Counted from the first letter of the stretch, positions 29,401 to 56,709 are shown. The stretch: 64,000 bases of DNA from Pseudovirgaria hyperparasitica (GCA_010093815.1 ML996573.1), one strand, 5' to 3'. The notes: generated by a model not told the origin, from the letters alone. Numbers and translations: made by a program.

Positions 29401-32400
29401 TTAGCGTAAATTTTTACCCTAAACGCGCCTATCTATTTAACTTTATTAAGCTAAGTAAGCTTTATAGATAATCTCTCTATACTATCTAAAGGGACTACTT
29501 TAGCCTAAAATATATAGAGGGTATCTATTTCGTCTATTAATATACTAAGTCTTATATTTTTATTTATATATACCAATCTAAATCTATAGTTTATAATAAA
29601 TATATACGCTATATTTTAGTTGGTAAGATATATATAGACGCCTCCGCCTTAACTAAGCCTTATACTTATATATATTAGGGTAAATATATAATCTTCTATA
29701 GCTAACTCGTACTAGTAATAGATTATAATTAGAACTAGTATAAGTATTTATAGCTAGAGAATAGTATACTATAAAATAGTTACTCCCCGGCGCACTACTA
29801 GTTAAATAGTAGTAGTAAAGGTTAGTATAGTAACCCTACTATATATACTAATAGTTATTATATACGTACTTATATAGATATCTATCTTTTAAGATACTAT
29901 AACGTCCGTTCTAAGAAGGAGACCTATCTATAGATAGTTAAGAATATATATCTTATATATTACTTTTATAGTTATAGTAGTTAAACTATTAGACGTTTAG
30001 CCTAGAAGGAATAGTATAATAACTATAAATTTACTTAACTTTATAGACTTAACTCCCTCTACTCCCTAAATAGAAATAGCTAGTTAGATAAGTATTTAGG
30101 TATTAGGGTTCTACTATTTAAGAAAAGCTTAGTCGATTAGTATTACTACGCTTTCTATATCTAGGTAGATACGTTCGATAGAGCCGTTAAGACTAAGTAA
30201 GGCCTTAACTTAGATATAGTGTAGAAGGCCGCTCCTGTAGCCCTATATGTATGTGTCCCTAGCTCGATTACATGGCTTCATTGTATATTTAAGGAGGGCG
30301 TTTTCCTTGGTCATTCTGCTCGGCGCTCCCCCCATCACTAATATTCGACTATTCGATCTTTCCTTACGTTTATGGGCCTCTATAGGTATTGATTATTAGG
30401 CTTAGCTATTGAAGAATTAATTAAGAGTATTATATAGACCCGTCCTATCGTAAAAGAGAACTAATAAGAAGTCGTGCGTTTAAAGAGAACTCATAATACC
30501 TAGGAGAGATACTTGTAAGTTCGTCGCGACTACTATACTAGGAATATAGCCATTTATAAAAGGGATACACGTGGCGATAGCTTACTATAATTTTAGAGGT
30601 CGTACCTAGACTACGAACTTATAGGGGGAGATTAGAACTCCGAAACTAGCTTAGGGGAAGTATATGGCGTGCCTAATAAGGTAGTCTAGACTTACTAGAT
30701 CGAAGCCACGAGTCCGGAAAACAGGGAGTCCGGAGTCGCTAGGGGCTAGCCTCTTAAAAGTAGCCGTAAAAAGCATGCGCATGCTAATACGGGTGATAGC
30801 GCGACTCGAAAATGTCTTAGGGGAATAGGATATAAAACAGGGCTAGATGAAGTAGTAAAGAAGAGTTTAAAAACGATAAATATAACCTGTTTAGTACTAC
30901 TATAGCTATTATTTATAAACACGGCCACACGAGTATACTACTTTAGGAACGCCTTACACGAAGATAATAATATAAGTAGAATACCGTGAACCTTATATCA
31001 ATAAAGACGATAGTAATAGTTTACCTTATAAAGGGATTAGTTAATATAGAGAAGGGATGATAGGTGTTATAGGTAGACGCATTAGGCCAACCTTTAGTTA
31101 AGGTAATCCCTTAACTAATAACCTTACCCCTAGCGTCTCTACTAGTATACTTACTACTAGTAATAGTATAATAGGAGCTTAAAATAACGACCTAGTAACT
31201 CGTAGAGAGATACTTAACTTCTTCGTAGTATTTGCGCGATAAGGAAGGATAGTATCTCTACCTACCCTAGCCCCCGAGCGCTTTAAAGGAATAAACATTA
31301 CGGCCTTCCTTCGGAAGTATAAGGATATATATATAAACTACGAAGTTCCGCCTAATAAGAAGATAACCTCTCTACCGTTATACTACGAGGACCATCTCCG
31401 TCCTACTATTAAAGGAATAAGTAGGTTTTAGAAATAGTAGTAGGCTATACTATATAAAGAATTATTAAAGGAATTCTCTCTATTTAACTCTACCCTTAAG
31501 GAAGGCACCATCCACTTTATCCGAAAATACGTGGAAATGGTTAAAGTAGACCTATCCTACTCTCTCTCTATATACTACTCCCGGTATCGTGTTATCACGG
31601 AGAAACTTACGGCTAAAGGAAGCCTAAGCTTATATTCGCGAATAGAGCTCTTCCTAGAAGGGCTGCCTAATAGTCTTAAGGCTCGGGCTATAGAGAAATG
31701 TTAACTCACGATGGAAGTACATAGTTATAACTAGGTAATTATCTATGGCTTCGTATTATAAAAGGCTAGAGCACTTAAGGAACTAGCTCGTATTAATAAG
31801 TACTTAGCCGCATAAGAGCTAGCTATAGCCATATACTATAAATTAAAGATAGAGAGTAAGAAGACCGGCTTAGAAGAGTAGTTACATGAAGAAAGAAGAA
31901 CTAATAAATTTAACTACCCCTCTCTAGTCGTAGTACACGTTACGCTAGAATCGGATAAGTTTAACGAGATAGTAGAGAGATTTAGTAAACTAGACCTTAC
32001 GTTAATTAAGATGAAGTCCTACTTTATCTCTAATCCCTTATTTCTATCCCTTAAGAAGTACGAACCTAAGCTACTTTCGGCTATTATTAACTAGTAGACG
32101 CGAAGGCTAAATCTTTTAGTATATCCCTAAGTACGAGGCATGCCTATAGAACTAACGTAAGTTTATCCATAGAATTATATATAGAATAGAGAATACGTCT
32201 CTACCCGAGACTCCTAAGGGGGCGTTATAGCCTAGGATAGGCCTCAAAGACCGATTATATATATTACATGCGGAGAAGATTACCTAATATATAGATATCC
32301 GGAGATAGTAGAATATATTAGAGACGGATTACTAAATATTAACGGGGTGCGAGTGTTCTAAGGGCGTTTCGGGGCGAACGGAGAAGAAATCCTATTACTA

Positions 32401-33801
32401 CCCTCCTCGGCAGGGCTATAAGCTACTCTATAAGCTATCCGGAACTATATAGTAACGGTTTAAAACGGTCTAAGCTAGTACGGAGGAGGAGTAAAGGTTT
32501 CTATATCTATAGTAAATATTAACGCTTTATAGGGAGTGCCGGTATATAGTATTAGTATAAAACCTATAAAGGGTCTCTACTAGGCCTCGGCGGATAGCGA
32601 TTCGGAAGAAGAAGTTACGTCGCCCGAGAGTAAGAAAGATAGATATATAGAATTCCACGAACGCTTTAACGTGGCTAGTAATAGATATATCCGTAAGGAG
32701 ATGGCCCTAGAAGAGCCCGCTATACTTATAATATCTAGAAGGGGGATTACGAAGAGTATATCTAATCGTACTAAGAAAAGAAAGATCGCCTATCTCTGCG
32801 GAATGCGTGAAGGGTAATATATAAGGATTATTAAGGAATAGAAGGACGGTAAGAAGAGTAGCGACTAGAGAACGTCTAAATAAGAGCTAACGGCGCTAGA
32901 GGATAAGATAGATAAAGGGGATAGCCTAAATCCTAGTTAAAAGGCACGTATCTAAGGCGTTAAGCTTAATAACTATCTACGCGAAGGATAGCGGCTAAGT
33001 ATAGAAGCTAGTAAAGCATGGCTGGTGCGCGTTCTAGAGATAACTATAAACATTACTATTAGCGAACTATTAAGCCTTAATAGCGACTTACGTCGTGCGG
33101 TATTTAAGAAGGGCGCCCCCGACTTTATAGCTAGAGAGGTCTACGAGGCTTAAGAAGAGAGAGCCGAGAAGAAAGGAAGAAACGACTATACTATAGCTTC
33201 TAAGATAAATAAACTTAACGTATTAGTACCTCTCTATGCTATAGGGACGGCCATTATATAATAAGATATTAATTAGCTTAAGGAAGGGATAGTAAGGCTA
33301 GTGGCCGAGTGTCTAAGGTACTCCGTGGAAGTTAGTTCTAAAAGGGCGACTAGTATAGCACTATTCGATAGTAGCGTATAGATAAATAGTATTCGACTAG
33401 ATGCTACGAGGCGTCTCGGGCTAGCGATATCTTTACTTCTACTATATATAAAGAACTTAAGTTTAGTTAGCGCTACTTAGTATAGTACTCTATTCGTGGG
33501 AATAGTATAGTAATACCCTATCCGTATAGGTTAGATCGTTACGGCTACTTCGATATTCGTATATAGCGAACTTAATTATAACCTTATCCTAGGGGAGCTA
33601 TATACTAGATAGGCCTTACTTACGGTATAGAGGTTAGCCTCTAGGTAAGTACTCTTAATAGTCTACTCCGTATATAGATAAGAACGTATAACCTTTAAAA
33701 CTAGTCCGGATAAGTATATTCTAGTCTTAGAGAAGGAGGGTAACTCCGTGGCTAGAGACTAACTATATAGCGGAGTATGTCGCCGGAAGCCGGAGTTAAG
33801 C

Positions 33802-33840
33802 CGGATTATTAGTTAATGGCTACCCTTAACTAATAATCCG
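33802..33840. repeat. Shared palindrome copy (Gypsy-3 gag-pol junction)
   Basis: CGGATTATTAGTTAA-tggctaccc-TTAACTAATAATCCG. Confidence 0.9.
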
Positions 33841-36800
33841 CACTAAATAGGGTCTAGTAAACCTACTAATAAAGGGGATAGGCTATATTTTTATATAGAT
33901 ATAGAAATAAGTTATATAGAGTTACTTTCTAAGAAAATCCGGCCTAAAAATGTTACTCGGTTATCGAGAAAAGATAACTTAGCCGCCCTAGTTACGGCGG
34001 TAAGGTACGCTACCTTCATATATAAATAAGGCACGATAATAGAATAGCTTATAGTAGACTCCACCGGCCTCTAAAGACGGTATTTATCCGGGGTATTAAA
34101 GGGATTTAGTATAGCTACTATATATAAAAGAAAGGGAGTTAAAGTATACCCTATGGATGACTCCGAAGCCCACCGAAAGGTTCCTAGGAATCTATTAGGG
34201 TATCTAGACTAGCGTGAACGAGTAATCGCATAGTAGGTACTTCTTCTAGCCGTTCATCTAGGCCTTAACGCGTTTAATAGGCTAATAGAGCCTCGAAGGG
34301 TAACTATCCCGCTAGGAACACGTCTAATGCCTCTATATATAAGTTAGCTAAAGATTAGAATGGAGCTACGTCCCGCGGAACTTAAGTTACTATATATAAT
34401 CTTATTATATCGCGAGGAAGCACTAGTATAGGAATTCTTATACCTTAGTAAATTTAATGAAGAGGTAGCACCTCCGTAGGAGATCCGAATGGTAGAATAT
34501 AAGGTATAGTAGGCTAAGAACTTTAATATTTCTAGAGCCCTTTATAGGAAGGTACTTACAATCCTAAAAGAGCGTCTTAATAGCGGAAGGCTCGAGCCCT
34601 ATAGTAGTCCTTATCGAAACGCCTATTTTCTCGTAGAAAAGAAGAAGGAAGCTAATAAGGAACGAGATTATAGGTTAATTAATTCGGCGATAGAAATTAA
34701 CCGAGTCACTATTCGTGATGCGGCCACGCCGCCCTTATATAAAGAGTTCTCGGAGCACTTCACGGGGATAGCCGTCTTAACGTTTACCGACTTCTTCTTA
34801 GGATACGATTAGATTCTATTAGTAGAGTATTACTAAGACTTAACGGGGTTTATGACGCCCCTAGAATTACTATATAGAATAATATTACCTTAAGGGGCTA
34901 CTAATTTAGTAGCTTAGTTCGTTAGAATTATATTAACTATTATATAAGAACATATCCCGGAGAGGGCTCTACTATTCCTAGATAACTTAGATATTAAAGG
35001 ATCTACGATAAAATATAACTCTAAGGAGGCCCTGCCTAGAATTCGTAGGTATATCCTAGAACATTTAATTAACGTAGATAAGGTTCTCGCGGATATAGAG
35101 CGCGCCGGATACGCCCTAAGTAGTAAGAAGACTTAGTAGTATATTAAAGCCGCTAACGTTATAGGATACGTCTACGATATTAAAGGGAGGCGACCAAGTA
35201 ATAAAAAGGTTACTACTATTAGGGACTAGAAACCCTATAAAAACACGACGAATGTGCGAGCCTTCCTTAGCGTTTATATATATTTCTAGATATGGATCCC
35301 TAGGTACGCTATTATCGCATCGCCGCTATTTATACTATTAAAGAATAAATCGGTCTAGTAGTAGATAGCTAAGGAGTAGACCTCGATAGACGCGCTAAAG
35401 ATAGCTCTAACTACTACTCCCGTACTAATAACGTTACGGTACGGGATAGGTACGGAAGATATAATTCTAGTAGTAGACTCTAGTAACGTTAGGTAGGGAG
35501 CTACGTTAATATAGGAGAACGAGAATTATAAACGTTAGCTATCGCGGTATAATAGAGGAATATAGTTAAAAGCTAAGAGAAACTACGATACCGTGAAGCT
35601 AGAGTACTAAGCCCTCCTCCACGCGTTATAGAAGTTCCGGTAATACCTCTATAGTACGTACTTTATTATAGAAATAGACGCGAATACTCTAGTCGCTTAA
35701 ATTAACCGTACTATAACTAACTTACTAGGGGCGCTCGTTACTAGATGGCTCGCGTAGATTTAGCTATAGAACTTTATAGTTAGGCACGTACCTAGGAAGC
35801 GTAACGTAGTTACCGACGGTATCTTACGGATATACGAAGGAGAAGAACTACTAGACATCTCTACCTTTAATCTAGACGAGTTCGTGGACATGGCTCTATA
35901 TATAGACGTACTAGAGATGTCGTTAATTAAGCCCGTTAGCGGGAGGGATTATATAATAGAGATACTCGACTATACCGCTATTAAGTCTCCCTTAATAGAT
36001 GAATATAGCGATAAATAGTAGAGGATTACGAAGTACCTTACTATACTTAAGAGGCTAACCGACCTAACCGACCGAGCGTATAAGGCCTTTATAACTAACT
36101 ACCTAAAGTTCCTTATATATAACTAAATACTCTAGCGGAGAGGAGATGGGCATCGCTAACATACACGAGTAATTAAGGATCCGAATACTAGGGCGCGTAT
36201 AATTACCGCTACTTATAATAAGATAGATCATAGAGGTAGCGAAGGGACCCTTAGAAGGATTAAGGATAAGTATTAGTAGGTAGGTATACGTAGAGACGTA
36301 CGATAGTACGTGAAAACCTATAATAAATATTAACGATAAAGTAAACTCCTCGGAGGTCTTAATAAAGGGCTCTACCACGTTATAACGCCTATTCTTTAGT
36401 AAAGAATATACTTGGACGTAATGACGCTACCACCTTCCATAGGGTATAGTAAAGTAGTATCTATACGAGAATAGCTAAGCGGATAGACTAAGGCGGAGGC
36501 ATGTACGGCGGCCACGTCTATAGTCGTTATAAAGTTCCTCTTTAAGAACGTAATCTATAGATACGGAATCATTTCTAAAATCATCTATAACGGTAGTAGA
36601 GAAAATATAGGTGCTATAGAGGAGCTCCTCTAACTCTATGGAATTTATTAGAAGGTTACGTCTACGTATAATCCCCGAGTAAATGGGATTATCGAGAGAA
36701 GTTTTATACTACTTACTAATACTCTTACGAAGATAACTAATAGCGGATTTAAGAACTAGCCCGGCCACCTCTATACGGTTGTCTAGGTAGATAGAATAAC

Positions 36801-37524
36801 GATACGTACTAGTATAGGGTATAGTACTATATACCTCATACTCGGCTATAAACTAATTATACCTATCGAAGTCGAATTCGAGTCGCTCCGAATACTCCCT
36901 TAGGACGAGGTGTAATTAACGTCCGACTTACTCGCTCTTCGAGCTAGATAACTTAAGAGAAGATCTAAGGATCTTAAGGAGGCCTATGCCCACACGACAC
37001 GAACGCGTAAGAAATTAAGAGAGGCATGGAATAACGACCATTACCTTCGTTAAGAGTCGTTACTAGTTAATACGATTATCCTCCTATACGACTCGTAGTA
37101 ATAGAAGGATATAGGGCGGAAGCTAAGGTAGTATTAGAGGGGGCTATATAGAATCTAGTCCGTGTTTAATTATACTTATAAGCTCGCGGAGCTTGATGGA
37201 GCCATGCTTAGAGGGACGTTTCCTAGCTATAGGTTAAAGAAATATTTTATAAGAAATATAAGTAATAAGAGTTATAACAAGCCCTCGCGACCACTAATCG
37301 GAAGAATTACTAAGGAAAATAAGAAGAGTAGTAATAAGGAAAACTATTATAAATAACTTATGGAACACCTCGACGACGCCATACGAACCTAGGTGGAAGT
37401 AGTAATTCCTACTCCGTAAGACTTTAATAGAGAAGAATATTTATGTTTCCCTAGAATCGACATCTCCTTCTAGGGAATAGAAGTTTTTTTTAAGGAGGGA
37501 AGGGATGCTTATAAAAGTAGTCTT

Positions 37525-37625
37525 ATGATAATAAACTCCATTATTAAAAAAGGACGATAAACTCCATCATCGAAAGAGGATGATAAACCCTATTATTACT
37601 ATAAAATGATAAAACTTATTATTAA
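37525..37625. repeat. Degenerate ~29-bp tandem repeat downstream of Gypsy-3 pol
   Basis: GATAAAC(T/C)CCATCATCGAAA-like unit repeated about 4 times. Confidence 0.7.
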
Positions 37626-37829
37626 AGCAAGCAATGCTCGAAAGAAGACATAATGGCGTTTACGCGAATTCCACCTACCATATATTAAAGCCGGTCGTGT
37701 AATCGAAGCCTACCTATCGAAGGCCCATTTCGTTACTATAGAACGGGCCCCGTTAGAAACTAATAAGGAAGAAAAGAAGGAGGAGGTATAGGAGAAAAAG
37801 ATACTTATAGGAAGTCTTATAAGGATAAG

Positions 37830-37935
37830 AATATACCTAGTATCTATTTATTTATAGATTCCGCCATATACCCGGTAGATATATTTATTCATAGATTTCC
37901 TATATACCTAGTATATATTTATTTATAGATTCGAC
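37830..37935. repeat. ~36-bp tandem repeat x3 upstream of the Gypsy-3 accessory ORF
   Basis: ATATACCYRGTA-ATATTTATTYATAGATT unit three times. Confidence 0.8.
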
Positions 37936-38153
37936 ACGTATACGGGCCTACGGCCGTTAGTAAGGATCATTTATAAAAATTACTATATACCTAGTATTTA
38001 AGGAGGCATAAAAAGAGAACTTAAGATAGTATATAACTCTTCCCTCTTACACCTCTCTATACCTCCTTAATTAATAAAACCTTCTTCTATACTTCCGCCT
38101 CACTTAACTATCTCTCCTTAGAATATAACTCGCTAATAGAACTAATAATAATA

Positions 38154-41087
38154 ATAGCCCCGCTAAAAAAGAAAACGCCTACCCGTGAAGAGTTATAAGA
38201 TCGTTAAGCACTAATAAGATAGACGCGGTCCTAGTTAAGAGTCGTAAGTGCTAAAGTAGGGCTATCGACGGCTATCATGGTATTAAGGCCATCTACTACT
38301 CCGCACGGATAGGCTATAGAAGCTATAGAAGTAAATGAGTCTACTATTAACCGAATTATCGCCATCTAGGACCCGTAAGAGCGATGGGACTATATTCTAG
38401 ATACGTTTAATAATCTCCTTCACATTACTAGCCTTATAGAATAGCTCTTAAGTAGTATAGTTAACCTCTTCTAGAAAGTAGGAGCTGTAATAGGGTATAG
38501 TAAGGTAAAGATTAACTCCTCCATTTCGAAAGAAGTCCACGAGATAATTTATCGTGGAAGAGATACTAACTCCCGCATCCTAAAAGCTAAAAATGTAATC
38601 CTATAAAACTAGCGAAAAGACCTCCCTAATAATGATAGCTAGTTACTCTAATCCGCCCTCGGATAGCTCTAGTAAACATAGAACTTTATAGAAAAGCTAG
38701 TAGCGCTCTTACGAATATAGATATAGGCGAGAGCGAGGAACTAGTTAAACGTATCTCTATAGTCCCGAATCGGCTAGGGATAGAAGGGAAGGGGAATTAA
38801 GGCATATCTTTAGAGCTCTAATATCGATACCGCTCTAGCTAGCGATAGTAACGAGGATAGTCTATCTCTCTAGTAACTCTCGAACTACCCTAGCTAATAA
38901 AATGAACTAACGTTCTATAATAAGACGGGACTTATTATCCCCGCTAGTTAATAGTTACGGATAAGTAGAATGGTTTATAGACCCGTCGAATACTATCTAT
39001 AAATCAAAGAGATAAGTGCATCGCCTCCGCCTTAGACCTTACCGTCGCTAAAACTAGCGTAGATAACGCCTACGGTAAAGTCCCCTCCACGAAGCACGCC
39101 TTCTAGTTTAGTAGCACGTCGTCTCTTTAAAGCTAGTCGTCCGTTTAAAGTAAGCATTCCTCCTACTACTACTAGTATACGTCCCTTACCGGGCCATACG
39201 AGAACCTCTTTAGTATCTATTATAGCTACGCCGATAAAACCCACTCGCGGACGTACCTTATCTACCGGCCCTTAGTAATTACCAGGGGCGCCTACATGAT
39301 AATCCCCGGTTATTCTTAGTTTATACCCTAAGATAATAGTATCGGTCGAGGAAGAGGACGAGCCTAAGAAGTATTAATACGCGCCTTTAGTGACGAAGAC
39401 TTTTAAGGCAGCTATATTATTAAAGAAGAATTTCACGAGTATTAAGGGAATGGCCCTACTAGTGCGCTAGAAAGCGTAGATAGGTAACATGGCTATTCCG
39501 TATAAAGTCTACTATAAGCATTACTAAGACGTGGCTAGAAAGAATAATATACTCGTTAGCGTGTCCTACTTAAACCTAGTAGCGAGACTTAAAATAGTAT
39601 ATAAGTTTAGAGATAACGTGGGGGCCCTTAAAGTTTATAAGGACCGCTATACCTAGTTCGCGAAGTACACGCGGCCACCTTATCTAATAGAGGTATTAGG
39701 TATCTATCATTACTAGGCCCTAGAGACCCCGAAGTAAGTTATTAATATTAAAACCATCCTTACTAGTATCGTATTTATAATTTAGAAGGAGGACGGTAGA
39801 ATAGATAGGTAACTCTTCGACGAGTAGGAACGTACCGGAAGTGTTAATATTAAAGGGCTCTTTAAGCTACTTAAAAAGACGACCTCTATACTTAATAAGA
39901 GTATCCTAGAACTCGCGAGGGATGAATTTAATATGTATAAGTACCACTAGCGCATGTTTAATAAGAAATCGAACTACGGCTAGCTACGAACTATATACCA
40001 CTCCTATATCTAATAGTTTATTAGGTAATATCTACTTTACTAGCTTACCTATGTCGCTCTTCGGCCCGATCTTAACTACTATCTAATCTTATACCCGTAC
40101 TATGCGAAGTCCTAGAATAGGGGTAATAAGACGGGTTTTAAGTATCTCGATAACGCCATTAATCGAATCCTCGATCCTAGTAATAGACACGGGTTTAATA
40201 TAATCTAGGGGAGTATTAGTCTTAACGATAAACGAAGTAACGACTATACTATAATCATTCCCCGCTTCTATAAGTTCTTAAACGAATAGTAGTCGAAGGC
40301 CAAGCTCCGCGAGGGGGTTAATCGAAACGGTATAATCACGGCTATTAATGATAAGATCTATAATACGGACGATAAGAAACGATTTAGTCCCTTCGTCCCG
40401 GTCCCCTACTAGTCCCTTAAAGTACATATCTCTAGCCTACTAATAATACACGGCGCCTAGGGTCCCGTAAAGGGTGGAAGATACATGATACTTCCATAGT
40501 ATATCGCGATTGGCCCTAATTATATAATAATGGAAGTACCTAAAATAGGTACATAGGAATAACTCGTAGTAGCTTATAGGAATTTAACTCCGGGACCTAC
40601 GTCTCCGTCGGGATTTTCTAATAAATATAGCGTGATTTCTTTTACCTTCCTAGCCGTAGTTTAACTCCCGAGTTTTAACGCCGTTAGTAACGTATTAGTC
40701 GGCCGTAAAAGATAGGACAGCTAGAAGGTAAAAGAAGAGGTAGCTACGTGGCTTAACATAAGTCCTTAATAACTTAAAGCTAAGGTAGACGCCTAGTTTA
40801 AGGAGGGCTCGAGGGTATTCGTAGAGACCTTTAAGAAAATAGTAAGGTAGAAAAGGCTAGTCTATAGGGATAGGTCGTTCTAGAAGGAATTTAATAAGGC
40901 GCGCGCCGCTAAGTAGCCAATTAATTTTAAGAAATTCGAGTCCAACGCAGGCCTAGATAACATTAAAGAGAACTTCTATAGATAGGAGAGGCCTAACGAA
41001 CTATCCGATAAGGAGGAATCTAACCTCTCTAAGATAAGCGACACGATTCTTTAGGAGCTGGCTCGCGACCTTAAGTACTAAGATTAG
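38154..41087 (+). pseudogene. Accessory ~980-codon ORF of Gypsy-3 with a C-terminal PhyH-like 2OG-Fe(II) dioxygenase domain, RIP-inactivated
   Basis: One frame from ATA(ATG)-APLKKKTP. De-RIP motifs GFKHLD (TAT CTC GAT, 40143-40151), IQGSISLDDE..DCT.IIPRFH (40203-40272), intact distal His CAC 40449-40451, and Arg ten residues later (HGAQGPVKGGR). The stop position is approximate. Confidence 0.7.
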
Positions 41088-41106
41088 GCGCCTAAAAACC
41101 TACCTA

Positions 41107-41139
41107 ATTATTAGTTAAGGGCTACCCTTAACTAATAAT
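41107..41139. repeat. Shared palindrome copy (Gypsy-3 3' UTR)
   Basis: ATTATTAGTTAAGGG-cta-CCCTTAACTAATAAT. Confidence 0.95.
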
Positions 41140-44100: not shown

Positions 44101-44224
44101 TATATCTATAACTACGCTCTATCTATTCTCTCGTTCTTTATATATATATAGCCCTAGGGGCTACCTATAGGCCTATAGCCTATATTATAATGGTTTGCCC
44201 TTAGGTAGCACGTGTAGGTGCGGA

Positions 44225-44259
44225 GATTATTAGTTAAGGGCTACCCTTAACTAATAATC
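44225..44259. repeat. Shared palindrome copy (LINE 3' UTR)
   Basis: GATTATTAGTTAAGGG-cta-CCCTTAACTAATAATC. Confidence 0.95.
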
Positions 44260-47200
44260 GCGGTTCTCCCGGGGTTCTTCCGACGTATACCGGGGTTCTT
44301 CTAGTATATATTAGGCTTCTTCTAGTATATATACACGGGTCTACTAGAACTAGGGGAGAGGAAGGTATATAAGTATCTATTAGGTAATGTCCTTAGGGTA
44401 CTTATTAAGCTATCGCGTAATATTAGAGGTCCTTATCATACGGACGAGAGCTTATCTTAGGGTATAGAGACTAGAGTACGTCGTGAGGTAGTGGCGTATT
44501 ATACCTCTCCGGCCGTAGTCCTCGTACTAGGGAGATATATCTAGAACGCCTCTCTAGTAGAGATAATATAGAAGATCTATAGCGCCTATTCGGGCTTAGA
44601 GGAGTATAGATACTTAGGCCTTCGTTAGCCCTTTATATATATATTTACTTAGTTCCTTCTAAGGCCCTCGGATCTATTCTAGATATCTATCCTATTAGGA
44701 GGCCCACTAGGCTTTAAGTACCTCCCTCTATTTATTCTAGATCCACGACCGTATAACGCGGCTAAGCTCCTTAGAGCTCTATTAGCTCGGGATAGTATCC
44801 GGGTTATTTTGAACCTCCTATACGGTCTAGCTCGAGTCCGCCTCTATATAGTATTTATATTATACTTGAGTTTATTCTATAGTAGGGAGGGCCTAGTAAT
44901 GTGCGTGGATACGTGTACGTAGTACGGCGAAGGTATATACCCTATCTCCTCTACGTTCTTATACTTATTATTTAGTAAAGTATATAAGTCTCTATATCTA
45001 GTAGAAGTTCTATATACTCGTTACGTTTATCTCGCGTTAGAGAAGCGTCGTATTAGTAGCTTTATATACGCCGGAGATAAGGCGGAGTATACGGTTTTAT
45101 ATAGACTTAAGCTTTACCCGCCGAGCTTATATAAGGGCCGTATACTAGTACTCGTGTCTATATATAAAGGCTAGGCGTACTAGGGAGACGTATAGCTATC
45201 TCGCCTTATTCTAGGCTATTCCCTACGTGGATACCGTAATCCGGTATATAGCGGTTTCTATCTAGAGGGCTCTAGAGACGGTGTATACTACCTATGGTCT
45301 CTATTTTAGCTTATTATCGATTATAACGCTAAGTGCTCGTATACTCTATGCTAGTGGTTCTATAAAGGCGTCGATTTAGGGGCGACGTGCCCTCTCCCTA
45401 GTAGCCTATCCTCTATAGCGGTTAATAAAGTATATAAGCTAGTATTTTTTAGGTGCGAATTTTACTCTATAGTACTTTATCTACTAGATGTATTTCTCGT
45501 GGTCTCATTCGAGTCGTGTATATGTTCTACTAGTACTACTATCGACCGTAAGGAGGTATATATCGTCCGCGTATCTAACTATCTCTATATATTCTATTCT
45601 CTAAAGGAGGTCTACTATAAAGAAGAGGAAGAGGATCGGGGAGATGGTACTCCCTTACGGGATGCCGTATACCGTCTTCTTATATTTGCTTCGGTATCCG
45701 GGGATATATATTTAAGTAGTCCTTTACGCGAGGAAGAACTATATAAATCGTATAATCTACTTAGGTATTCGCCTTATCCGGAGGTTATAGATAAGTCTTA
45801 TGTGGTTTACCTTATTAAACGCCCCTACTATATCTAGAGAGAGTAGCGTAACGACTCGTCCTTATTTCTATATAGTCTAGATAACCTCGAGGATGTATTA
45901 AATAGCTATAATTAGGGAGCTTTCTACCTTCGCCTTCTGGTTTACTAGGAGAAGGCCGTGTACCTATACTACTATACTTATCTTCTTAGTAATCGTGGCT
46001 TCTAGTACCTTACTAAGGTAGGAGAGGAGGGCGATCGGCCTCTATCCCTTCGGCGTGTTTAGGCTCTTCTCTAGTTTTAGAAGTATAACCGTATATACGG
46101 TTCGGAAGCTCTATAGGTGGTATCCTATACGGGCGCACGCTCGGAATATATGGCCTATAATTAGTAAGGTCGCCTATATAGTCCTCTTAAGGTATCGATT
46201 CGGAATTCCGTCTAGCCTAGGCGCTTTATCATTTAGGAGTGTCTTAATAGCGCCGAGTATATCGTCGTCCGTGATTTCCCTAGGGATACTTACGGCTTCT
46301 AGGTATTCCATGCCGTTAATATCTAATAGGTCTACGGGTTCTAGGAGAGGGAATATAACCTCTTATAGGATCTCTATTTTCTCGAGGCTCGTAGAGTACG
46401 TCTTTTCTTAATATATAAGGGGGGGTATAAGTAGTATAGGTGTCGGGGAGGCGGTGCTTTTGGCCCATTTTACCATATGCCATAGTCTAGTAGTATTATA
46501 TATATATCTATCCGTGACTATACGCTACTATTTACGTCGCTTATTACGGAGGACCTTATCTTATTATCTTCTCGCCTCTCTCTATTTATTCTACGCTTTA
46601 GATATATAGTTATAGTATACGCGTATATATAATCTCTAGACTTCTCGCCTATACTCTCGTACTTAAGGTATACTTTTTAGGTCTAGGGGTCTATATATTC
46701 AGTACGGCACGTGTTTATCTCTTACTCCCTAGTACGCCTATAGGAGTGTATTTACGGCCTGGTTGATGGCCGGGCCATTAGATACGTCGACTATAGATGG
46801 GTCTAGAATCGTCGATTCTAGGTCCTTTAGGTACTTTTCCTAGTTAGTATCCTTCTATAGCTATCGCCCTCGTTAGTCTTAAGGGGTAGATACGTCTATT
46901 ACGGTCTCTATATATTTATGGTCGGAGTCTATCTATATAAGGCTTAGGCGGTAGTATTAAGTCCTATTATAAATATGTCTAGTGGCTAGGGTAAGGTCGA
47001 GTATAGATCCGCCCTTATCTTATTTATATTTTCGCTAGGTAATCTATCCTACTAGTATAAGAAGGTATAGAAAGCCATAGTATTAGATGCGTAGTTCTCT
47101 AGCTCGAAGCTCTTCGCGGGTGACGGTTAGTCTACCCCACTAGCTATAATAGAGGTTGAAGTCTCCTAGGAGAATGTATTATTCTAGCTCGGTAGTACCC

Positions 47201-47515
47201 TTAAGTATATTATCCGCCTAAAGTAATCGGTTCTAATTATATATATTATATATATAGAGGGGTCCGATATTCGTCTAGAGGTGTAGTATTATCCGGAGGT
47301 TATCCCGTTTAGTATACGACTATAATAAGAGTAGAATAGACTTATAGACATGGAAGAGGACTCTCCTCTCCGGTCCTAGGGGGTGTATTATATAATATTC
47401 TAGGTGTGTTATTGGTTTGTTTGTCTGGTAGTGTTTATATGGCTTCTATATAGCGAGTATTACAGCTCCGGTCTCCTTAAGGAGTGTTATCTAGTTCTTA
47501 CGTTTATACTATACG

Positions 47516-50500
47516 TGTAAGAATAGGGTTATTAGATAGTAGTGTAGTTAGATAGAATAATAGGGTGTATTCTATCATAGAACGAATTACTACCGAACCC
47601 TTTTAGTAGGAATCCGAGAGTATATATATAAAGGGACGCCGATCTATCTAGTACGTAACTATTTACCGCCCTTTACGTTACCTCCTAACCCTATTAGCTA
47701 AGGTATATATAGATCGGGTCCTACCTAAGGCTAAGTCCTAATAATTATCTCTTCCCTCTAGGAAGCTACCCTTAGCGACCTAGATCGTTATCTATCTCTA
47801 TATCCCTATCCTAAGTCTCGTAAGACCTTAGTCGTTCTCTACGCTTTATCTTAGATACTTACCGATATTCGCTAATCTAAGATTTACATAAGCGTTTTCC
47901 TAATAAACTAGATTTTATCTATCTTAACTTCTTATATAGGTAAGATTACCTAATTAGGCCTAGCGTATCACGTGATGTGATTAGGTAAGCCCGGGTACTA
48001 CCTATATTAAAATCTTTTCTTAGAAATATTTCTTTCTTTAAAAAACTTCTTAACTCTTTATAGAGTTTTTTAGATTATTAGGTATATCACCCGATCCTTA
48101 TAGATATAGATTTATATAGATTTACTATAATTTAGTACGATTTACGTAATTTACTAATTTTCGTACCGTCCTTAGCTAGTAATAATATAATTCGTAATAA
48201 TCCGTATAAATTAATAATAATCTTAATATGGTTTCCCGAAATCTCGACACTCTAAAGTAATTAGCGCGGAAATAGACGCCTTCGAATAATCCCTATCTTA
48301 TATACGTTACTAATATGTCGAAAGCCATTAATCTACCCTAACCTAGGCCGGGCTCTAATAATCTAGCTATATATTATTATAGTTATCGCTTTCCATCATA
48401 CATTACTCACGGTAGTACTAAATCTATAATATACGGCACTTACATAACTAAGAAGCGTTATTACTTATAGGTATTTAAGTAAGTTCGAAGAACTTTACGT
48501 AGATTTACTTATATTAGTATAGATTACTACTAGGCCTCTAGTAACCCCTACTAATAAGGAGTATAGTACTACCGATCGCAACGCCTTAGAGAAGGCTTTC
48601 TACGAGCTATATACCTAAGGTAAGGGTTACGCCTAGGAGTATAATTCTAATAAGATCCGCAAGGATTTATCGGAATCTACTATAGCTATTATTACCGCGA
48701 TTACTAGGTAATATCGTTTTTCTTAAATTATTATAGATTCTTACTAATATATATTAATCTCTATAATAGTACTAAAATCTCTACTACTTCGGACTTCTTT
48801 CTATATATCGGCGATATTAGAATTCCTAGAAAAGGTTCTAGTAAAAAGGCTAAGGTTCCTTCCTTACGCGTGCTAAAGAGCTATAAATTTAGGGAAGATA
48901 GCTCTAATCTAGAAGTTTCTATACTAAAGGTATGTGGTTCTATACCGATCGTTGAATCTTTTTACTAATTTATATAATTCTTAGCGTGCCCGCGCCGGTC
49001 CATCCCTCTCTATCCTAGGTCCCGCCACTNNNNNNNNNNTGGTTCTATACCGATCGTTGAATCTTTTTACTAATTTATATAATTCTTAGCGTGCCCGCGC
49101 CGGTCCATCCCTCTCTATCCTAGGTCCCGCCACTCCGTAGGTTTCTATAGAGGAGTTTATAGCTATAAGGCGCGCTATATAGAATTTATAGCGTCGGAAT
49201 AAAAGGCTAGAGACTTATATTATAAAGCTCTATACTATGCTAAATAAGAACTAGCGGAAGGAATTAGATATAACCATCGCGGTAATTAGTACTTCTACTC
49301 CTACTCTAACTTAATCGGTTTAGATCTATACTAATTAGTACTAATATATCTCTTTTATCTAGCGTTTTTGGTTTTTTAGTTTTAATTTTAAAGCGATCTT
49401 ACTTCTTCTAGATAGATTAGTACGAGTTTATATAGATCTATATAGATCTTTCTATTTTCTTTTAGCTTTCTTAATTTTATCTTTCTTTAATAATAACTTC
49501 TTTAATCTCTTTAGTGATCTATACCGATCTATACCGATCGGCACCGATTTTCGATGTCCATTTCTCTTAGTAAATCATTTTTCTAAGTCTCTTTTTTAGT
49601 TAAATTTTTTAAAGTTCTAAGTTCGAACTTTCTAAGGAAGTTCCTTAATTCCTTAGAATGTTTTAAAGATCTATATCTCTTTTATCTTCTTCCTTTTAGG
49701 CGGCCGTCCTTAGCGCTAAACTATACTAAAAAACGTCGAATCGCCGTACTTTAGTATAATTCTCTATGATTCTACGGCTTCCTTTACTAATCGCTGCTTA
49801 TATACTAATATCGCTGCTTTACTAATATTTATTATAGGTTCCCAAGTATCTTCGTTAGGATTATATCCTTTCTAATGAATTTTATATAGCTACGTGCCAT
49901 CTTCGGCGCGTTACTAGCTAAGTATCTACTTAACTTCGTAGATATCTATACCTTCTTACGTAACTACTTTATATAGTATCTATTCGGAACGATCCGGTAA
50001 TAATAAGGTATGAAATGGCTCGAGAAGCGTAATATAGAATATATTATATATCTTTAACGTAGGAGGGAGTTACAACTCGTACACCTAGTCATTGATTACA
50101 CGAGTAATCTTATATAGACCTATTATTATATAGTTAAGCTTCTTCTTTAGCCTAATACTACGAATATTCTTGCTATTTAGTAAAACTTTGTCCCTAACAT
50201 TAAAGATCATGGGTTTTCTACCCTTATTATGGTGCGATTTACTATAATTCATAGTATCTTATAGTAACTTTATAACGCTTCTTTGCATTTAGAATAGTTC
50301 TATAGTAATTTCTATTACTTTAACGTTGGGTCGTTCTACTTTAAACTAAGTCCCTAAGAACTACGTATTATAGTTCTAACCGAAGTTTACTTCGAACGGA
50401 CTCACGTGGGTTAACGTATATCGGCTGTTATTATACGCGAATTCCGCGACATAGACTAACCTTGCCTAGTTATTCTACTTATAGTTATAATATATACGTA

Positions 50501-53500
50501 AATACGCCTCGACTATCTAATTCTACCGCTCTATCTATCTATCTATTTATAGGTAGAACGTAGTACTAAGTTTCCGCTTAATTCCTAGCGTATAGTAGAA
50601 ATCCTTCTAAAATTTAGACGTTATCTACGGACCTCTATCTAAAACTATACCGTTTAGTATACTATGGAGCCGGACTACGTCACGGAGTAGTATATCTATA
50701 AGATCCGGTGCTTGGATCGTCTTCCTTATAGAGATATAGTATAATATCTTCGTAAATCTATCTAGAACTACAAGTAAACTATTATAAATATACCTAGAAT
50801 ACTTACTTAGGGGTAGATCTATGATGAAATCCATCGATAATTCCTTCCATGCCTCCTTTAGCATAGGTAATGGCCTTAATTTACTATATGGTAAGTGTCT
50901 ATATACTTTCGTATACTAGTAAACGTTATACGTTTTTACGTAGTCTTTTATATATTTATAAAGACCCGGCTAGTCGTACGTCCTTTAGATTAAATCGACC
51001 GTCCTTATAACGCCGAAGTGCCCTACTAACGCGTAATCGTGCTATTCCCTTAAAATATTAATTTATAAGCCGCCTTCTAGCACGTAGAGTCGGCCTTGGA
51101 AGTAGATCGTGTCTAATCGTCGTTTCTACCTTAATAACTACGGCGGATCTATAGCGCTTCCTTTTATACTTATAACTTTCTTTACTAATATATCGGAATT
51201 CTAGGTAGATTTAATTAAGTCTTTAAGGGTTTTCTTAGTTTCTTGGACGTTTATTTAGATTACTTAATACCCGCTCTAATTCCCGCAGAGAATCGCCGAA
51301 AGTGTCCTAGCTTCTAGCATTCTATTAGATAACTAGTCTTATAGTATCTAAAGTATAGTATAGTCTAACTTATACCGACTATCTACATCATTCTATAACA
51401 ATTTCTTATAATCTTCACGCCACGATAGAGAATTAGCTTTATTCTCTCTTCTAGCTTTATATAAGATTTTAAAGTTAAATATTAATATCTACTTAGCCTA
51501 ATATACTTATCGGCGATTAAGGACCTTAGTTAATATAAAGTAACATAGATTTATATAATCCGATAATAATTCAATCTAATATACGGAGCCTTCTAAATAA
51601 TATCGCTATTATTTAAAACTCTTAATAATTATAAGTAGTTCCTAGTCATGCGTGTTATAACGCGTCTCTATATCTACTATTTTATAGGAAAAGAAAGCGA
51701 CCGGGTGCCATTATATCTTATCTTTTATATCTTTATATAGTTAACTAATAATTCTAGTAATTACGAATTCTAACGCGTTAGTTTTAATCTAAATATACTT
51801 CTCGGGATCGAAATACCTAAGAATCGGCGTAGTTATAAAGTAATTCTTTAATAATCGGAACGTATCTCGCGCTTCCGGCGTTAACTATATCTCGACTAAC
51901 TTAGCTTTACGCTATGCTCGCCTATCTATAGAGATTTTACCGCCATTCTCTATAAGTTTATTAAGCAGCGCCGTAATTTATAAGAAGCCTATAATGAATT
52001 TATAATAATAGTTTACGAAACCTATGAATATTCTAATTTAATATATAGTAGTAGGTTCTGGCCATTCCATGATGGTCTTTACACGCTCCGGCTCTATTTT
52101 TAGGCCGCTATATATTATAATAAAGCCGAGAAACCCAACTTCTTGTTAGTGAAACTCGCATTTAGACAATTTTGCGTAGAGTTTATACTACCTTAGACGA
52201 TTTAGCACCGATTTCACGTGTTCTTTATAATCCTGCATGCTATTAGAGTAAATTAGTATATTATTAAGATAAACTACGCAAATCACGTTAAGTAATCCTA
52301 CGAGTATAGTATTAATATATCCTTAAAACGCTCCTAGCGTATTTATTAGCCCGAATGGCATAATAGTATACTTAAAATAACTATATCTAGTCTAAAATGC
52401 GGTTTTCCACTTATCTCCGCGATAAATTCGAAGCTAGTAATATATATCTCGTAAATCTAGCTTCGTAAAGTACTTTACCTTCGTTAATTAGTCTAAAGAT
52501 TTACTAACTAGCGGTAATAGATAACGATTCTTCTTAGTTACCGTATTTAGTATCTAATAGTCGACGTATAGACGTAAACTTCCGTCTTTCTTCTTCACGA
52601 AGAGAATAGGTACGCCGGCCGATAACGTACTATAACGTATCTAGCCTCTTTTAAGGTATTCTTTAATATATTTATAAAGAACTTTAAGTTCTAGTCTTAA
52701 AAGTAGGTAAAGTAGGCTATAAGGGACGTCTACTCCCTCTTCGAGCTTAATCTTTAGCTTATATAGCCNNNNNNNNNNTACGCCGGCCGATAACGTACTA
52801 TAACGTATCTAGCCTCTTTTAAGGTATTCTTTAATATATTTATAAAGAACTTTAAGTTCTAGTCTTAAAAGTAGGTAAAGTAGGCTATAAGGGACGTCTA
52901 CTCCCTCTTCGAGCTTAATCTTTAGCTTATATAGCCCGTGATTAGGGAGAAGTAACGCATCTCCTACCGAAAACATATCCGTATACTACGAATATACGTT
53001 AGGTAGCGTATCTTCGCCCTAATTATTACTATTATTCTCGTCTTTATCGACGATTAATAAGGACGTAAGATAGATTAGCGACGATCGGGTCCACACGGCA
53101 AGGTTCTATGCCTCCTTACTAATAGTTACGACTTACTAGTATAATTTACTATAGTATTATCGGAACGTTAATGTCTCCTTCTAAAAATCAAGGATAGAGT
53201 TTAGGCGTCTAAGCTAAGGCATCCCTAGAATCATATTCTATTAGCTAATATTAGCCACGATAAATTTATTAGATATCTACTATTTTATTATCTTTAAGTT
53301 ATGAACTTCATAATTCATTATAGCTTTACCTAAAGTTCTAACTTTATATCTATTAACTACGATAGTTCGGCTAACTTTACTAAGATCGTATAATAATCTA
53401 TACTCCTTTACGAGAATCGATAAAATATAGTTATCTTCTATACTAGTATCTACGAGGGCCTATATAGTTTTATTACCATTTACTATAGATAATAATACTT

Positions 53501-55172
53501 TTAGTAATATTAGGTCTTTACTCGCCGGAAGGCGCTATAGCTCCTTCTAAGTATATATAATTTAGCTAAGGACGTGGTTAGGTCTCGTGTACTAGCCTAT
53601 TCTTTTTTTAGATTCTTATAGTTAGGCGAAATATATTCTATTTCTCTATACTTATAGTAACGAAGTACGCTATAATCCTACTATTTTACGATAGGCGTTA
53701 TATTTAAGCCTATACCTTATCCTTTTCCGCGTTAAGAAGCACCGCCTTAATTATTTCGGTATCCTCTTAACGCGTTTCTACCCCGATTTACGCTCTTCTA
53801 GCGCTAATCATAGTAAGGTTACTCTTAATTAAACGTATTCGATCGACCTCGTTTCTAACCCGTATAGAGTTCGTCGGTTTTACCTAGAGAGCCGCGTTCC
53901 TTAAGGATATAGTAGTATTTATTAGCTTTCTCCTCTAATTTATATAGATAGTTAAAACTTAATAATACTATTTCTAGTCTTTCGCGGATTAACGGAAGTA
54001 GTACTTTATAAAACTAGAATATACGAATATTTTTCTATAGCGTAGGGATATTATTCTATAGGTTTTAGAGGTATTATAGTAGTTAAGTAGGTGTCTAGTT
54101 CGGTCGTTATACCACGCTTCTTAACTTAGATAGTGCCTTTCTTTCACGTTCTCTATCCGTTCCGAGGGTGTTTAGTATAAATATAGCTAAATATTCCTAG
54201 GTTATCATAGATAGTAGCTATACTTCCTTCTATCTATCCTATTAATCGCGGGATTATAAGCCTAGGTATCGTTCTCCGAACGAAATATATTATACTTTAG
54301 TAGAAAAGAGTAGAGGGTTATCAAGGAAGTACTTTTCATAGTCTCTCTTCTAGTCTTTCTACTCCTTTTGGTTCTTCCCTATAAATATAGTCGGGTCTTT
54401 AGGTTTTAGTATACCTAGGGAAGGAGTAGAGTAAATCGGTAACGAAGCGGCCGGGTATATAGTGGATTATCATAACTCTAATGGTAGGTAAACTAATTCC
54501 GCCTGAATTAGTATAGGAAGTCGTCCACCTACTATCGTTCGGCGTAGTTCTTTAAGAGACTCCTTAAGTTCTCGTCTCTTTGCGAGGAGTTTCACGCGTT
54601 CTATCTATTCTTTAAGGGTTTGAATCTCTCGAGTCTAATTCGCGACGTATTCCTAAAGTTTAGTAATAGTTTATTATAATACCTTGCGTGGCTCCGCCAC
54701 GACTCGTTATCCGACTTTATATTATTAGAAGTTACTTAGCGTATCTACCATTTCTTCGTCTAAAAGCTCCGTGATTTAGTCTAATATTTCTACTTCTCGG
54801 TTAGAAACGGCCGGGATTAATACCGATTATAGAGGATCCCTATTATTTAATATAGTATTACTTATCCCTATAGTAGATCGTGTTAACCTTCTCGGTTCTA
54901 GTTAGACTATCTTAACTATAGTACTATATAGGGAGTAATTCGAATGTAAGAATAGGGTTATTAGATAGTAGTATAGTTAGATAGAATAATAGGGTGTATT
55001 CTATTATAGAACGAATTACTACTAAACCCTTTCGGTAGGAATCCGAGAGTATATATATAAAGGGACGCCGATCTATCTAGTATATAACTATTTACCGCCC
55101 TTCACGTTACCTCCTAACCCTGTTAGCTAAGGTATATATAGGTCGGGTCCTACCTAAGGCTAAGTCCTAACA
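47516..55172 (-). mobile_element. Gypsy-1 chromovirus copy C, full length; LTRs 47516-47743 and 54945-55172; TSD ATACG
   Basis: 228-bp LTR pair TGTAAG...CTAACA; ATACG at 47511-47515 and 55173-55177. Chromodomain YEV..IL....YKI.WKGY.P.EDTWEP at ~49835-49950. Two N-gaps. Confidence 0.95.
48315..49314 (+). pseudogene. Antisense spliced accessory gene of Gypsy-1 (copy C allele; includes an assembly gap and duplication)
   Basis: ATG at 48315; same intron positions as copy B; donor GTATGT intact at 48930. Confidence 0.6.
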
Positions 55173-56676
55173 ATACGTTTACCTATATAATTAGAAGTAT
55201 ATCTTAGTCTCTTATTAGGTGCTAGGGAATATATAGACCTATATATTTATTCCTCTAAGACGCGACTATCCTCGTACGGCGGCGGCCTTAGTAATTCCTT
55301 AGGGCTGTTCTATTATTAGCTTTCTCGGGACGGTTTACTATTCCTAACCGCTTCCTCGTAAGGAGGTAGTCTATAGTAGTAGTATTATAGTAAAGAGAGG
55401 AACGGTAGTAGGTCGTATCGTTTATAGCTACCTTACTCCCTTTATCCGGATTAAGTAGATATATTTAGTAACCTATTTACGTTTCGCGCACGTAGCTAAC
55501 TACGACGGGTGCTTACCGTCGTAGTTAGAGTACTTCGCCGTGTCCCTATCCCTCTAGCCCTCTCCTCGTGTCCCGTAGGGGTACTTCTAGGTACTATATT
55601 CTTATCGATACTATCTATACCTAGTCTTTTAGGAGTACCGCTATGCTATATACCCGTATCCCTAATAGTTAAAGCACTATATTATCGCCTATACTCTATC
55701 CTATGGTTCCGCTATAAGAAGCTTCCCTTCCGCTAGGAATCCCTCTTATATAATTTAATACGCGAGGGCGGGGTCCTTAAGCTCTACTATTATAGTAGAG
55801 TGTACCTTTAATCTAGTTTTAATCCCTTATATATTCTTCTACCATGCTCTTATAATCTTAATCCCTAGGTATTTTCGCTCGTTTAACTATTCTATCCGCG
55901 TGATATCCTCTTCTCTAATAACCTATCCACTTACGGGTATAGAGTATACCTATATCGGGTATATGGCTACCCTAATAGAGGCGCCTAGGAAGATACTACT
56001 AATCGCGTTCGGATTACGCGAGATAGTCTACTACGCGATATTCGTTATCATAGTAAGTACTACTCCTCCTAGCGTAAGTTTAGCGACGATAACGTTTAAC
56101 TATATTCCCTTTTATTTATTAATCTTACTTACTATATCCTTTAGGGATACTTACTAGACCTATACTAGGGTGTCCTTATCCTAGATTACGATATATATAC
56201 TATATACCGCGTCACCGGTCCGGGGGGCCTATGGTATAGCCTCTAGTATTACTACTATTTATACCCATATACTAGGGCGCTTACCTTAAGTGAGTTCCTC
56301 CTAGATTCTATATAGGCTAGCCTCTATTCGGTCGAGCCTACCCTCCGGTCCTCCTAGTTATATCTTCTTCTTCTCCTCTATAATTCCCTTTAGGTTCCGG
56401 ATAAGGTCCTAGAATATATATAGAAGGGTCTTCTAGCCCTCTCCGGCTTCCTTCTCTATATATACTATCTAGTAGTTAATGTAATCTAGGAGGGTTTCCC
56501 CTCTTAGGGTCACCTTTATTCCGTCTATCTATAGCGGTATACGCCTTTGGGTGTGTTCTACGTTTTAAATAGGTATATGGTTGCCCTTAGTAATATCGCT
56601 ATATGGCCTTTTCTATCGTACCGGTAGGGGTATATCCGGTATATGCCGGGGTATGTCGGTGCCTAAGGCCGCCATA

Positions 56677-56709
56677 TTTATTAGTTAAGGGCTGCCCTTA
56701 ACTAATAAA
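56677..56709. repeat. Shared palindrome copy (LINE 5' UTR)
   Basis: TTTATTAGTTAAGGG-ctg-CCCTTAACTAATAAA. Confidence 0.95.

Follow-up and report, generated by a model that had tools for sequence, protein, structure and literature searches.

Why should a Ty3/Gypsy element, which is bounded by long terminal repeats (LTRs), and a long interspersed nuclear element (LINE) carry one and the same palindrome? The question is raised by a stretch of 64 kb from Pseudovirgaria hyperparasitica (GCA_010093815.1 ML996573.1), the whole of which was studied and is referred to here as the window. The palindrome has the consensus ATTATTAGTTAAGGG-CTR-CCCTTAACTAATAAT and occurs in the window as four near-identical copies and one degenerate copy. 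It is a real and specific feature, and it is unusual in being common to two retroelement classes. The explanation that we favor is that it constitutes an intrinsic hairpin cis-module of both retroelement families, a tentative reading to which we give a probability of about 0.45. The five copies, none of which is assigned to a strand, are the following (ORF, open reading frame; UTR, untranslated region).

31094 to 31118, no strand: degenerate copy with arms of 10+5+10 that are the same as the canonical arms, and a TAATC centre; 503 nt past the Gypsy 5' LTR, ahead of the gag-like block.
33802 to 33840, no strand: copy in the gap between the Gypsy gag-like and pol blocks; its left arm has one G>T mismatch within the core (33805-33837), and CGG/CCG lengthens the arms.
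41107 to 41139, no strand: perfect copy (15+3+15) in the Gypsy 3' region, past a 3.8-kb extra region and about 150 nt before the 3' LTR (41290) and a purine-rich tract.
44225 to 44259, no strand: perfect copy (16+3+16) in the LINE 3' UTR, 118 nt downstream of the putative ORF2 stop (44380-44382).
56677 to 56709, no strand: copy at the 3' end of the LINE 5' UTR, 1 nt from the first ATG in the ORF1 frame; its arms count as 16+1+16 because its centre is CTG.

An earlier reading of this DNA, made from the sequence alone (the sequence-only reading), had placed copies at these five sites, and all five were found there when the sites were read. A scan of the window with TTAGTTAAGGGNNNCCCTTAACTAA, allowing up to 2 mismatches, gave five matches (at 31094, 33809, 41111, 44230, and 56681), while the same scan of 100 dinucleotide-preserving shuffles gave a mean of 0.00 and a maximum of 0. 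The canonical copies agree with each other at 30 to 33 of 33 positions, the GC-rich centre GGGCTRCCC included. In the degenerate copy 20 of 20 arm bases have been kept and four adjacent centre bases are changed (TAAT vs GCTA). We also scanned for the 12-nt half-site with up to 2 mismatches and obtained 36 matches. All nine of those with 0 or 1 mismatch fall inside the five palindromes, so half-sites are never solitary; the 26 matches that lie outside the palindromes have 2 mismatches each and are unpaired. These results bear out the claim that one specific sequence is common to the LTR element and the LINE.

One possibility for such a resemblance is chance, helped by repeat-induced point mutation (RIP), which could have driven unrelated sequences to similar TA-rich, self-complementary words. 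Short TA palindromes are indeed common here: 12 perfect palindromes with arms of at least 10 nt were observed vs 2 to 5 in Markov-shuffled controls. The only strong palindrome of the chromovirus, a perfect one with 13-bp arms at 12989-13020 in one copy, differs at 7 of its 32 positions from both sister copies (at 21049 and 49517), in which the palindrome is absent, and it is a chance product of RIP. However, convergence does not account for the near-complete identity of the shared palindrome, and GGGCTRCCC is not RIP-made; the shuffle control effectively refutes this explanation.

The two elements that carry the palindrome are as follows.

30224 to 41657, plus strand: Ty3/Gypsy host element "Gypsy-3", from self-comparison and Pfam searches with stops read as X.
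43986 to 47515, minus strand: 3' part of the LINE, with ORF2 (Exo_endo_phos_2 and RVT_1), the 3' UTR, and a (TTA)n sense-strand tail at 43986-44006.
55178 to 57092, minus strand: 5' part of the LINE, with the 5' UTR and ORF1; the 5' limit at 57092 is inferred only from the onset of another repeat.

The names given to these elements in the sequence-only reading are supported by their domains and ends. The Gypsy element has 368-bp LTRs (30224-30591 and 41290-41657) that are 93.5% identical, and its pol block has Pfam matches to RT_RNaseH (E 1e-11) and Integrase_H2C2 on the plus strand. Between 44100 and 47514, LINE ORF2 matches Exo_endo_phos_2 (E 2e-07) and RVT_1 (E 6e-18) on the minus strand. 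The Gypsy gag-like block spans 31120-33807 and the pol block 33835 to about 37300. An extra region of 3.8 kb (about 37300-41100), with a long ORF-like frame on the plus strand, separates pol from the last palindrome. No Pfam match was found for the gag-like block, and none for the extra region (37300-41108) in six frames at E up to 1. In the RIP-damaged translation of the gag-like block we read what may be a CCHC-like knuckle and a protease-like motif, and LINE ORF1, with RIP changes taken into account, would contain three CCHC-like knuckles.

How are the copies placed within these elements? As the sequence-only reading had proposed, the palindromes sit at ORF boundaries: all five fall at the edges of the recognisable coding blocks and none within them, and this placement supports the hairpin-module reading. 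The three Gypsy copies are in the leader before gag, in the gag-like/pol gap, and ahead of the 3' LTR. In the LINE, the 5' copy stops just short of the first ORF1-frame ATG (56675-56673, minus strand), and the 3' copy lies about 220 nt upstream of the (TTA)n tail.

Positions of this kind could also be expected of a hairpin that controls translation, one that marks the starts and ends of ORFs and aids ribosome entry or re-entry (by internal entry, shunting, or reinitiation) or tunes the output of ORF1 or gag. The LINE copy immediately before the ORF1-frame ATG is what such a role would predict. So is the Gypsy copy placed right in the gap that separates two coding blocks; 9 nt beyond it comes TAA-ATA, perhaps a stop-start changed by RIP. 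In both elements several coding blocks are present on one RNA. However, two of the four canonical copies are past the last coding block, with nothing downstream to translate, and scans of the 64 kb gave no copy where Gypsy pol gives way to the extra 3' region. A single frame serves both the gag-like and the pol block, and no slippery heptamer is present ahead of the 33802-33840 hairpin, so that frameshifting would not be needed. Moreover, a stable stem directly ahead of an AUG is expected to hinder scanning. We therefore regard translational control as improbable. The original gag stop codon of the Gypsy element, if there was one, is masked by RIP-made stops, and stop-codon density is uninformative for mapping reading frames in this RIP-affected DNA.

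The sequence-only reading had also described the palindrome as selected, and this could not be upheld, as selection is not readable from conservation in a RIP-saturated region. In the repeats TpA/ApT is 1.55-1.93 and (CpA+TpG)/(ApC+GpT) is 0.07-0.27, vs 0.77 and 1.24 in the gene-bearing first 5.5 kb. When the locus was compared with other copies in contigs from a public run of the same organism (X1), 736 of 755 differences were transitions. The canonical palindrome contains zero CpA/TpG and is therefore beyond the reach of further canonical RIP. The copy with the CTG centre contains one, CTA being its expected RIP product. This CTG, at 56693, supports the centre of the pre-RIP sequence that had been proposed, and the rest of that sequence has no backing in the data. 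Among 33-nt windows of these elements, 44% are without any CpA/TpG and 80% have at most one. Because the DNA is RIP-saturated and most windows are as poor in these dinucleotides as the palindrome is, conservation is uninformative on selection.

Was the palindrome built into these elements or inserted into them? We aligned 201 nt around each of the five sites and found 28 invariant columns, 23 of them in the core. Homology between flanks was sought by anchored extension of 45 pairs, in which the best empirical p value (0.034) was not significant after correction, and by local RIP-tolerant alignments, in which the best z score (4.4 vs simple shuffles) was not significant either. The flanks are thus unrelated, as had been claimed. 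The sole hint of likeness comes from the pair 33805/44225, one of them inverted, with 68 nt at 74% (p = 0.044 on each side). The flanks of all five copies were read for target-site duplications, and none of consistent length was present. An AACCT/AACCTT direct repeat lies on both sides of the 31094 copy only; the other four copies are without it.

We also placed contigs from X1 and from a second public run of the same organism (X2) on 30600-47500, a region that covers four of the palindromes, at 80% likeness. A total of 40,873 contig pieces from X1 and 14,368 from X2 were placed. At a share of at least 15%, one indel row was obtained in 16.9 kb, and no "left out" or joint row, as would mark a variant lacking the palindrome, was seen at the four covered palindromes, which is a weak test. 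Summed word depth in X1 was 105,000-187,000 over the Gypsy and LINE families, vs 7,000-9,700 in neighbouring spacer; these values are not copy numbers. By this measure both families look abundant, and the contig comparison lends weak support to the palindrome being present in most of their members. The segment from the Gypsy 3' LTR to the LINE tail (41880-43571) is a repeat whose summed contig depth falls well below that of the adjoining parts, and low depth there is not evidence of absence. It is also the most RIP-depleted part, with (CpA+TpG)/(ApC+GpT) of 0.07 and a GC content of 0.30.

The LINE ends were followed in the same data. At the tail (43986-44006) reads seem cut, and contig depth climbs from spacer level to LINE level. 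We considered that the palindrome might be a long target-site duplication of a site-specific LINE and rejected this, as LINE sequence runs past both copies. Depth at LINE level persists to the left of the 44225-44259 copy as far as the (TTA)n tail, some 220 nt further, and about 380 nt of LINE lie beyond the 56677-56709 copy on the 5' side.

On these data one has to weigh the possibility that the palindrome is a passenger, that is, a tiny inverted-repeat foldback unit, or a short segment with such a unit inside, that entered the master copies a few times by transposition or template switching, survived where no frame was broken, and was then copied passively without any function. The palindrome is little more than two 15-nt inverted ends, none of its sites is coding, the outcome to be expected if purifying selection acted on the hosts, and its conservation needs no selection, since RIP targets are exhausted within it. 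The AACCT(T) on both sides of the 31094 copy is what an insertion might leave. The 33805 and 44225 copies have a G..C next position in common in addition to their weak inverted flank likeness. On the other hand, the other four copies lack a consistent duplication, within the 64 kb the palindrome is confined to the two families, and a neutral unit would have had to become fixed five times over in two master elements, which is a lot. The copy-specific flank pairing described below, in three of five copies, would be unexpected, and the contigs list no empty-site variants (a weak point). The passenger explanation is unlikely, in our judgment. The sequence-only reading had itself named the outcome that would speak for it, namely independent insertions with their own duplications that are absent from other family members; what we found was no such duplications and, in the weak contig test, no empty-site rows at four palindromes.

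All five copies in the 64 kb belong to the two host families; none lies in the chromovirus copies or in the gene-bearing part. The proposal of a cis-element used across transposable element classes thus stands for two families and does not extend to a third, the chromovirus (19142-26409 and 47516-55172). One chromovirus copy splits the LINE.

47516 to 55172, minus strand: nested chromovirus with RVT_1, RNase H, integrase, SH3_Tf2-1, and Chromo, without a palindrome copy.

It is bracketed by a 5-bp duplication, ATACG (47511-47515 and 55173-55177), within LINE ORF2/ORF1 DNA, and it was inserted later than the LINE. Its sister copy at 19142-26409 is about 92-94% identical, and partial copies are found at 11092-15162 and 57244-60002. 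The window contains three gaps of 10 N (22815-22824, 49030-49039, and 52769-52778). Two of these gaps are bordered by direct repeats that are 100% identical (95 bp at 48935-49029/49040-49134 and 158 bp at 52611-52768/52779-52936), which look like unmerged contig overlaps, an assembly artefact, rather than true tandem duplications.

The LINE has additional palindromes. A second strong one, unrelated in sequence, lies at 55496-55528, with 13-bp arms, a 7-nt loop, a GC content of 0.52, and -26.2 kcal/mol as RNA. It falls within the last CCHC-like knuckle of ORF1, about 20-50 nt ahead of the ORF1 stop near 55475 and just before the ORF1/ORF2 junction. Between the 3' palindrome and the tail, at 44140-44200 in the 3' UTR, there are more short palindromes, TAGCCCTAGGGGCTA and CTATAGGCCTATAG, one of which has GGGCTACC in common with the centre of the main palindrome.

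Does the palindrome act as a fold or as a duplex? When 63-nt contexts of the palindromes were folded as RNA, energies of -19.3 to -25.9 kcal/mol were obtained, with z scores of -3.4 to -5.6. When structures were ranked by strength in a 50-nt sliding fold, the palindromes took the top two places in the Gypsy element, the top place in the 3' part of the LINE, and the second place in its 5' part. Pairing of flank with flank beyond the core was then compared with composition-matched shuffles at 40 nt, and it was significant at three of the five copies (31094, p = 0.023; 41107, p = 0.002; 56677, p = 0.016). At 31094 the outer pairs are GACGC/GCGUC and UAGG/CCUA. Summed over the copies, the test gave p = 0.005 at 40 nt and 0.047 at 30 nt. 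A comparison with random sites of the region gave p = 0.0001-0.003 and was set aside, as it is inflated by the GC-rich flanks. Copy-specific basal stems, arms that were kept despite a changed centre, and full symmetry are modest evidence for a folded nucleic acid rather than a pair of protein half-sites.

The sequence-only reading had left the choice between an RNA hairpin, a dimeric protein site, and a boundary or anti-silencing signal. The hairpin is favored by these data and the protein site is less likely, given the full symmetry and the flank pairing in three of five copies. A duplex-DNA site for a dimeric protein of the host or the element (a promoter, boundary, or anti-silencing factor) would have some features to recommend it. 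A dyad with a single central base, as in the 16+1+16 form with CTG, is typical of dimer sites. Orientation does not matter to such a site, in keeping with the opposite directions in which the palindrome lies on the sense strands of the two families. Its arms hold what we read as TTAG..GGG, resembling the fungal telomere repeat, and possibly a RIP-changed CCAAT/ATTGG. However, symmetry at all 31-33 positions is far above what a protein would need, the Gypsy LTR promoter is elsewhere, no solitary half-sites occur, and the pairing of flanks points to folding. Such a site seems to us at least as improbable as translational control.

The outer arm bases had been said to differ between copies while staying complementary. 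This was observed, with CGG/CCG at 33802-33840, G/C at 44225/44259, and T..A in place of A..T at 56677/56709, although it carries little statistical weight, the last case being a compensatory change of a single pair. The one asymmetric base is the middle of the centre triplet, which is T on the plus strand in four of four canonical copies. As the two elements lie on opposite strands, the sense strand has T in the Gypsy element and A in the LINE. In sum, the observation made from the sequence alone is confirmed and its interpretation is partly supported.

How might a hairpin module have served both elements? In the reading that we favor, the module would already have been at these non-coding positions in the Gypsy and LINE master copies before they multiplied and were inactivated by RIP, and the palindromes at this locus would not be a set of independent insertions. 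It would act as folded single-stranded nucleic acid, most likely the RNA of the element. Each copy could form a stem of 15-16 bp capped by CUR and, because the palindrome is its own reverse complement, any two copies could instead anneal along 31-33 bp, whether they belong to the same RNA or to two different ones. Within one RNA the options would be the 5' UTR with the 3' UTR in the LINE and the gag/pol junction with the 3' region in the Gypsy element. As the mechanism we propose that the palindrome undergoes a hairpin-to-duplex switch of the Ty1 PAL1/PAL2 type, with the zinc-knuckle proteins apparently encoded by both elements as helpers. The switch would serve RNA pairing (dimerisation or cyclisation) and would favor template switching by reverse transcriptase, which may be the simplest route for the module to have passed between the two families. 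This specific mechanism is drawn by analogy and is, taken by itself, rather unlikely.

A bolder version makes the palindrome a portable "joint", with hairpins at the edges of ORF blocks through which the RNAs of unrelated retroelements could pair and coding blocks could be exchanged or captured. LINE and Gypsy RNAs, or two sites of one RNA, would be paired, the reverse transcriptase would switch templates there, and the blocks bounded by hairpins would act as cassettes. The LINE coding region does lie between two palindrome copies, and the 3.8-kb extra region of the Gypsy element ends at one. If true, the hairpins would do for retroelements what cassette boundaries do for integrons, and RNAs of different classes would have a way to be packaged together. 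We consider it very doubtful.

Several points weigh against the hairpin module as an intrinsic part of both families. The identity between palindrome copies is no evidence of selection. The window holds just one copy each of the Gypsy and LINE families, and the missing rows in 30600-47500 prove little, since contigs drop rare variants and some differences are uncounted. Flank pairing is absent in the other two of the five copies (p = 0.91 and 0.58 at 40 nt), and the summed test gives p = 0.23 at 20 nt. The four adjacent centre changes of the degenerate copy may represent a single event. The sense-strand T in the Gypsy element and A in the LINE argue against a reader of RNA that is specific for the loop. 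The zinc knuckles of both elements are a reading of RIP-damaged translations, and Pfam finds none. Finally, LINEs are not known to need RNA dimers.

Is the palindrome an example of something already described? Conserved hairpins are known within single retroelement lineages, as primer-site hairpins, dimerisation palindromes, and LINE 3' stem-loops. The nearest published idea is the GalEa elements' Conserved Hairpin Site (CHS), a short conserved hairpin of unknown function in non-coding retrotransposon DNA of filamentous ascomycetes, whose "extended CHS" of 33-62 bp is conserved even between families within one species (PMC5445492). There CHSeq1 (CTGATCAGT/CTAATTAGT) is paired with CHSeq2 12-41 bp away, and the site directly follows the Copia 5' LTR, where it replaces the primer binding site (PMC5445492). 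The present palindrome is similar in being a conserved hairpin in non-coding retrotransposon DNA, and the conservation of the CHS across families parallels the sharing between Gypsy and LINE. The RIP-type variant CTAATTAGT and the present arm also have the 6-mer ATTAGT in common.

On the other hand, the CHS abuts the 5' LTR, whereas the nearest copy here begins 503 nt past the LTR (30591 to 31094) and the others are at ORF edges. The CHS has arms of 9 nt and an interval of 12-41 nt, compared to arms of 15-16 nt and a centre of 1-3 nt here, and its hosts are Copia rather than Gypsy and LINE elements. None of the four present arm strings occurs in 6 supplementary files of PMC5445492. The string ACTRATYAGT is found twice in the 64 kb (12803 and 49330), a chance-level count, within chromovirus copies and away from any LTR junction. 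We reject an identity of the palindrome with the GalEa CHS, as the two differ in sequence, size, position, and host class.

The dimerisation palindromes provide a second comparison. The Ty1 SL1 hairpin (PAL1-UCU-PAL2) is described as becoming an intermolecular duplex under Gag and as mattering for mobility (PMC6844567). Ty1 PAL1/PAL2 and the dimer initiation palindromes of retroviruses resemble the present palindrome in their self-complementary arms and 3-nt loop, and in being able to form either a hairpin within one RNA or a duplex between two. The Ty1 arms are 6-7 nt long and in the 5' UTR only, while the present arms are 15-16 nt long and occur at 2-3 sites per element, in a LINE as well. 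Being self-complementary, the present palindrome is able by sequence to form an intermolecular duplex. Positions of the leader type are represented by the degenerate copy in the Gypsy leader and by the one copy in the LINE 5' UTR; the other copies are elsewhere.

A conserved stem-loop in the 3' UTR is also a feature of stringent-type LINEs, of which there are examples in eel and zebrafish. Such stem-loops are recognised by the element's own reverse transcriptase (PMC5135761). They resemble the LINE 3' copy in kind and position and differ in that they adjoin the 3' tail repeats, whereas the present one is about 220 nt upstream of the tail. The present hairpin is in addition duplicated in the 5' UTR and found in an LTR element.

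The passenger explanation, for its part, invites comparison with fungal foldback elements and miniature inverted-repeat transposable elements (MITEs), such as mimp and Guest. Like these, the palindrome is little more than two inverted ends and lies inside other transposons. Its 15-16-nt arms are terminal inverted repeats in the MITE sense, which is trivially true of any palindrome. It differs in having no target-site duplications and no copies beyond the two host families in the window, and its 31-33 bp fall far short of the length of described MITEs.

Database searches did not reveal a known relative. Rfam, searched over 30000-57500 on both strands at E up to 1, gave nothing at the palindromes; its only match was MIR528 at 37996-38071, off the palindromes, with 25.3 bits vs a gathering score of 62. 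A RIP-tolerant scan of metagenomes gave one locus, on a 2,092-bp bacterial-looking contig, with a different and longer palindrome around the same GGGCTACCC centre, which we take as a chance match. No match to the palindrome pattern was obtained in viral contigs. A text search of the literature for the palindrome strings and the guessed pre-RIP form returned only papers whose titles and abstracts show no relation to it. Searching the literature by topic brought up no description of a motif shared in this way; the scope of all these searches was Rfam, metagenome and viral contigs, and the literature. In these searches we thus found no description of an identical 31-33-bp palindrome that borders the coding blocks of both a LINE and an LTR element.

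What would the palindrome mean for these retroelements? If it is a mere passenger, it is a curiosity showing that RIP can freeze a short sequence. If it is functional, one option is that both classes go through a step for which it is used, be it RNA pairing, export, translation, or the use of a host factor. The other is that sequence has passed physically between classes whose evolution is usually regarded as separate. In either of these functional cases, a motif this short and exact would be a searchable handle for tracing recombination among transposon families in RIP-degraded fungal genomes.

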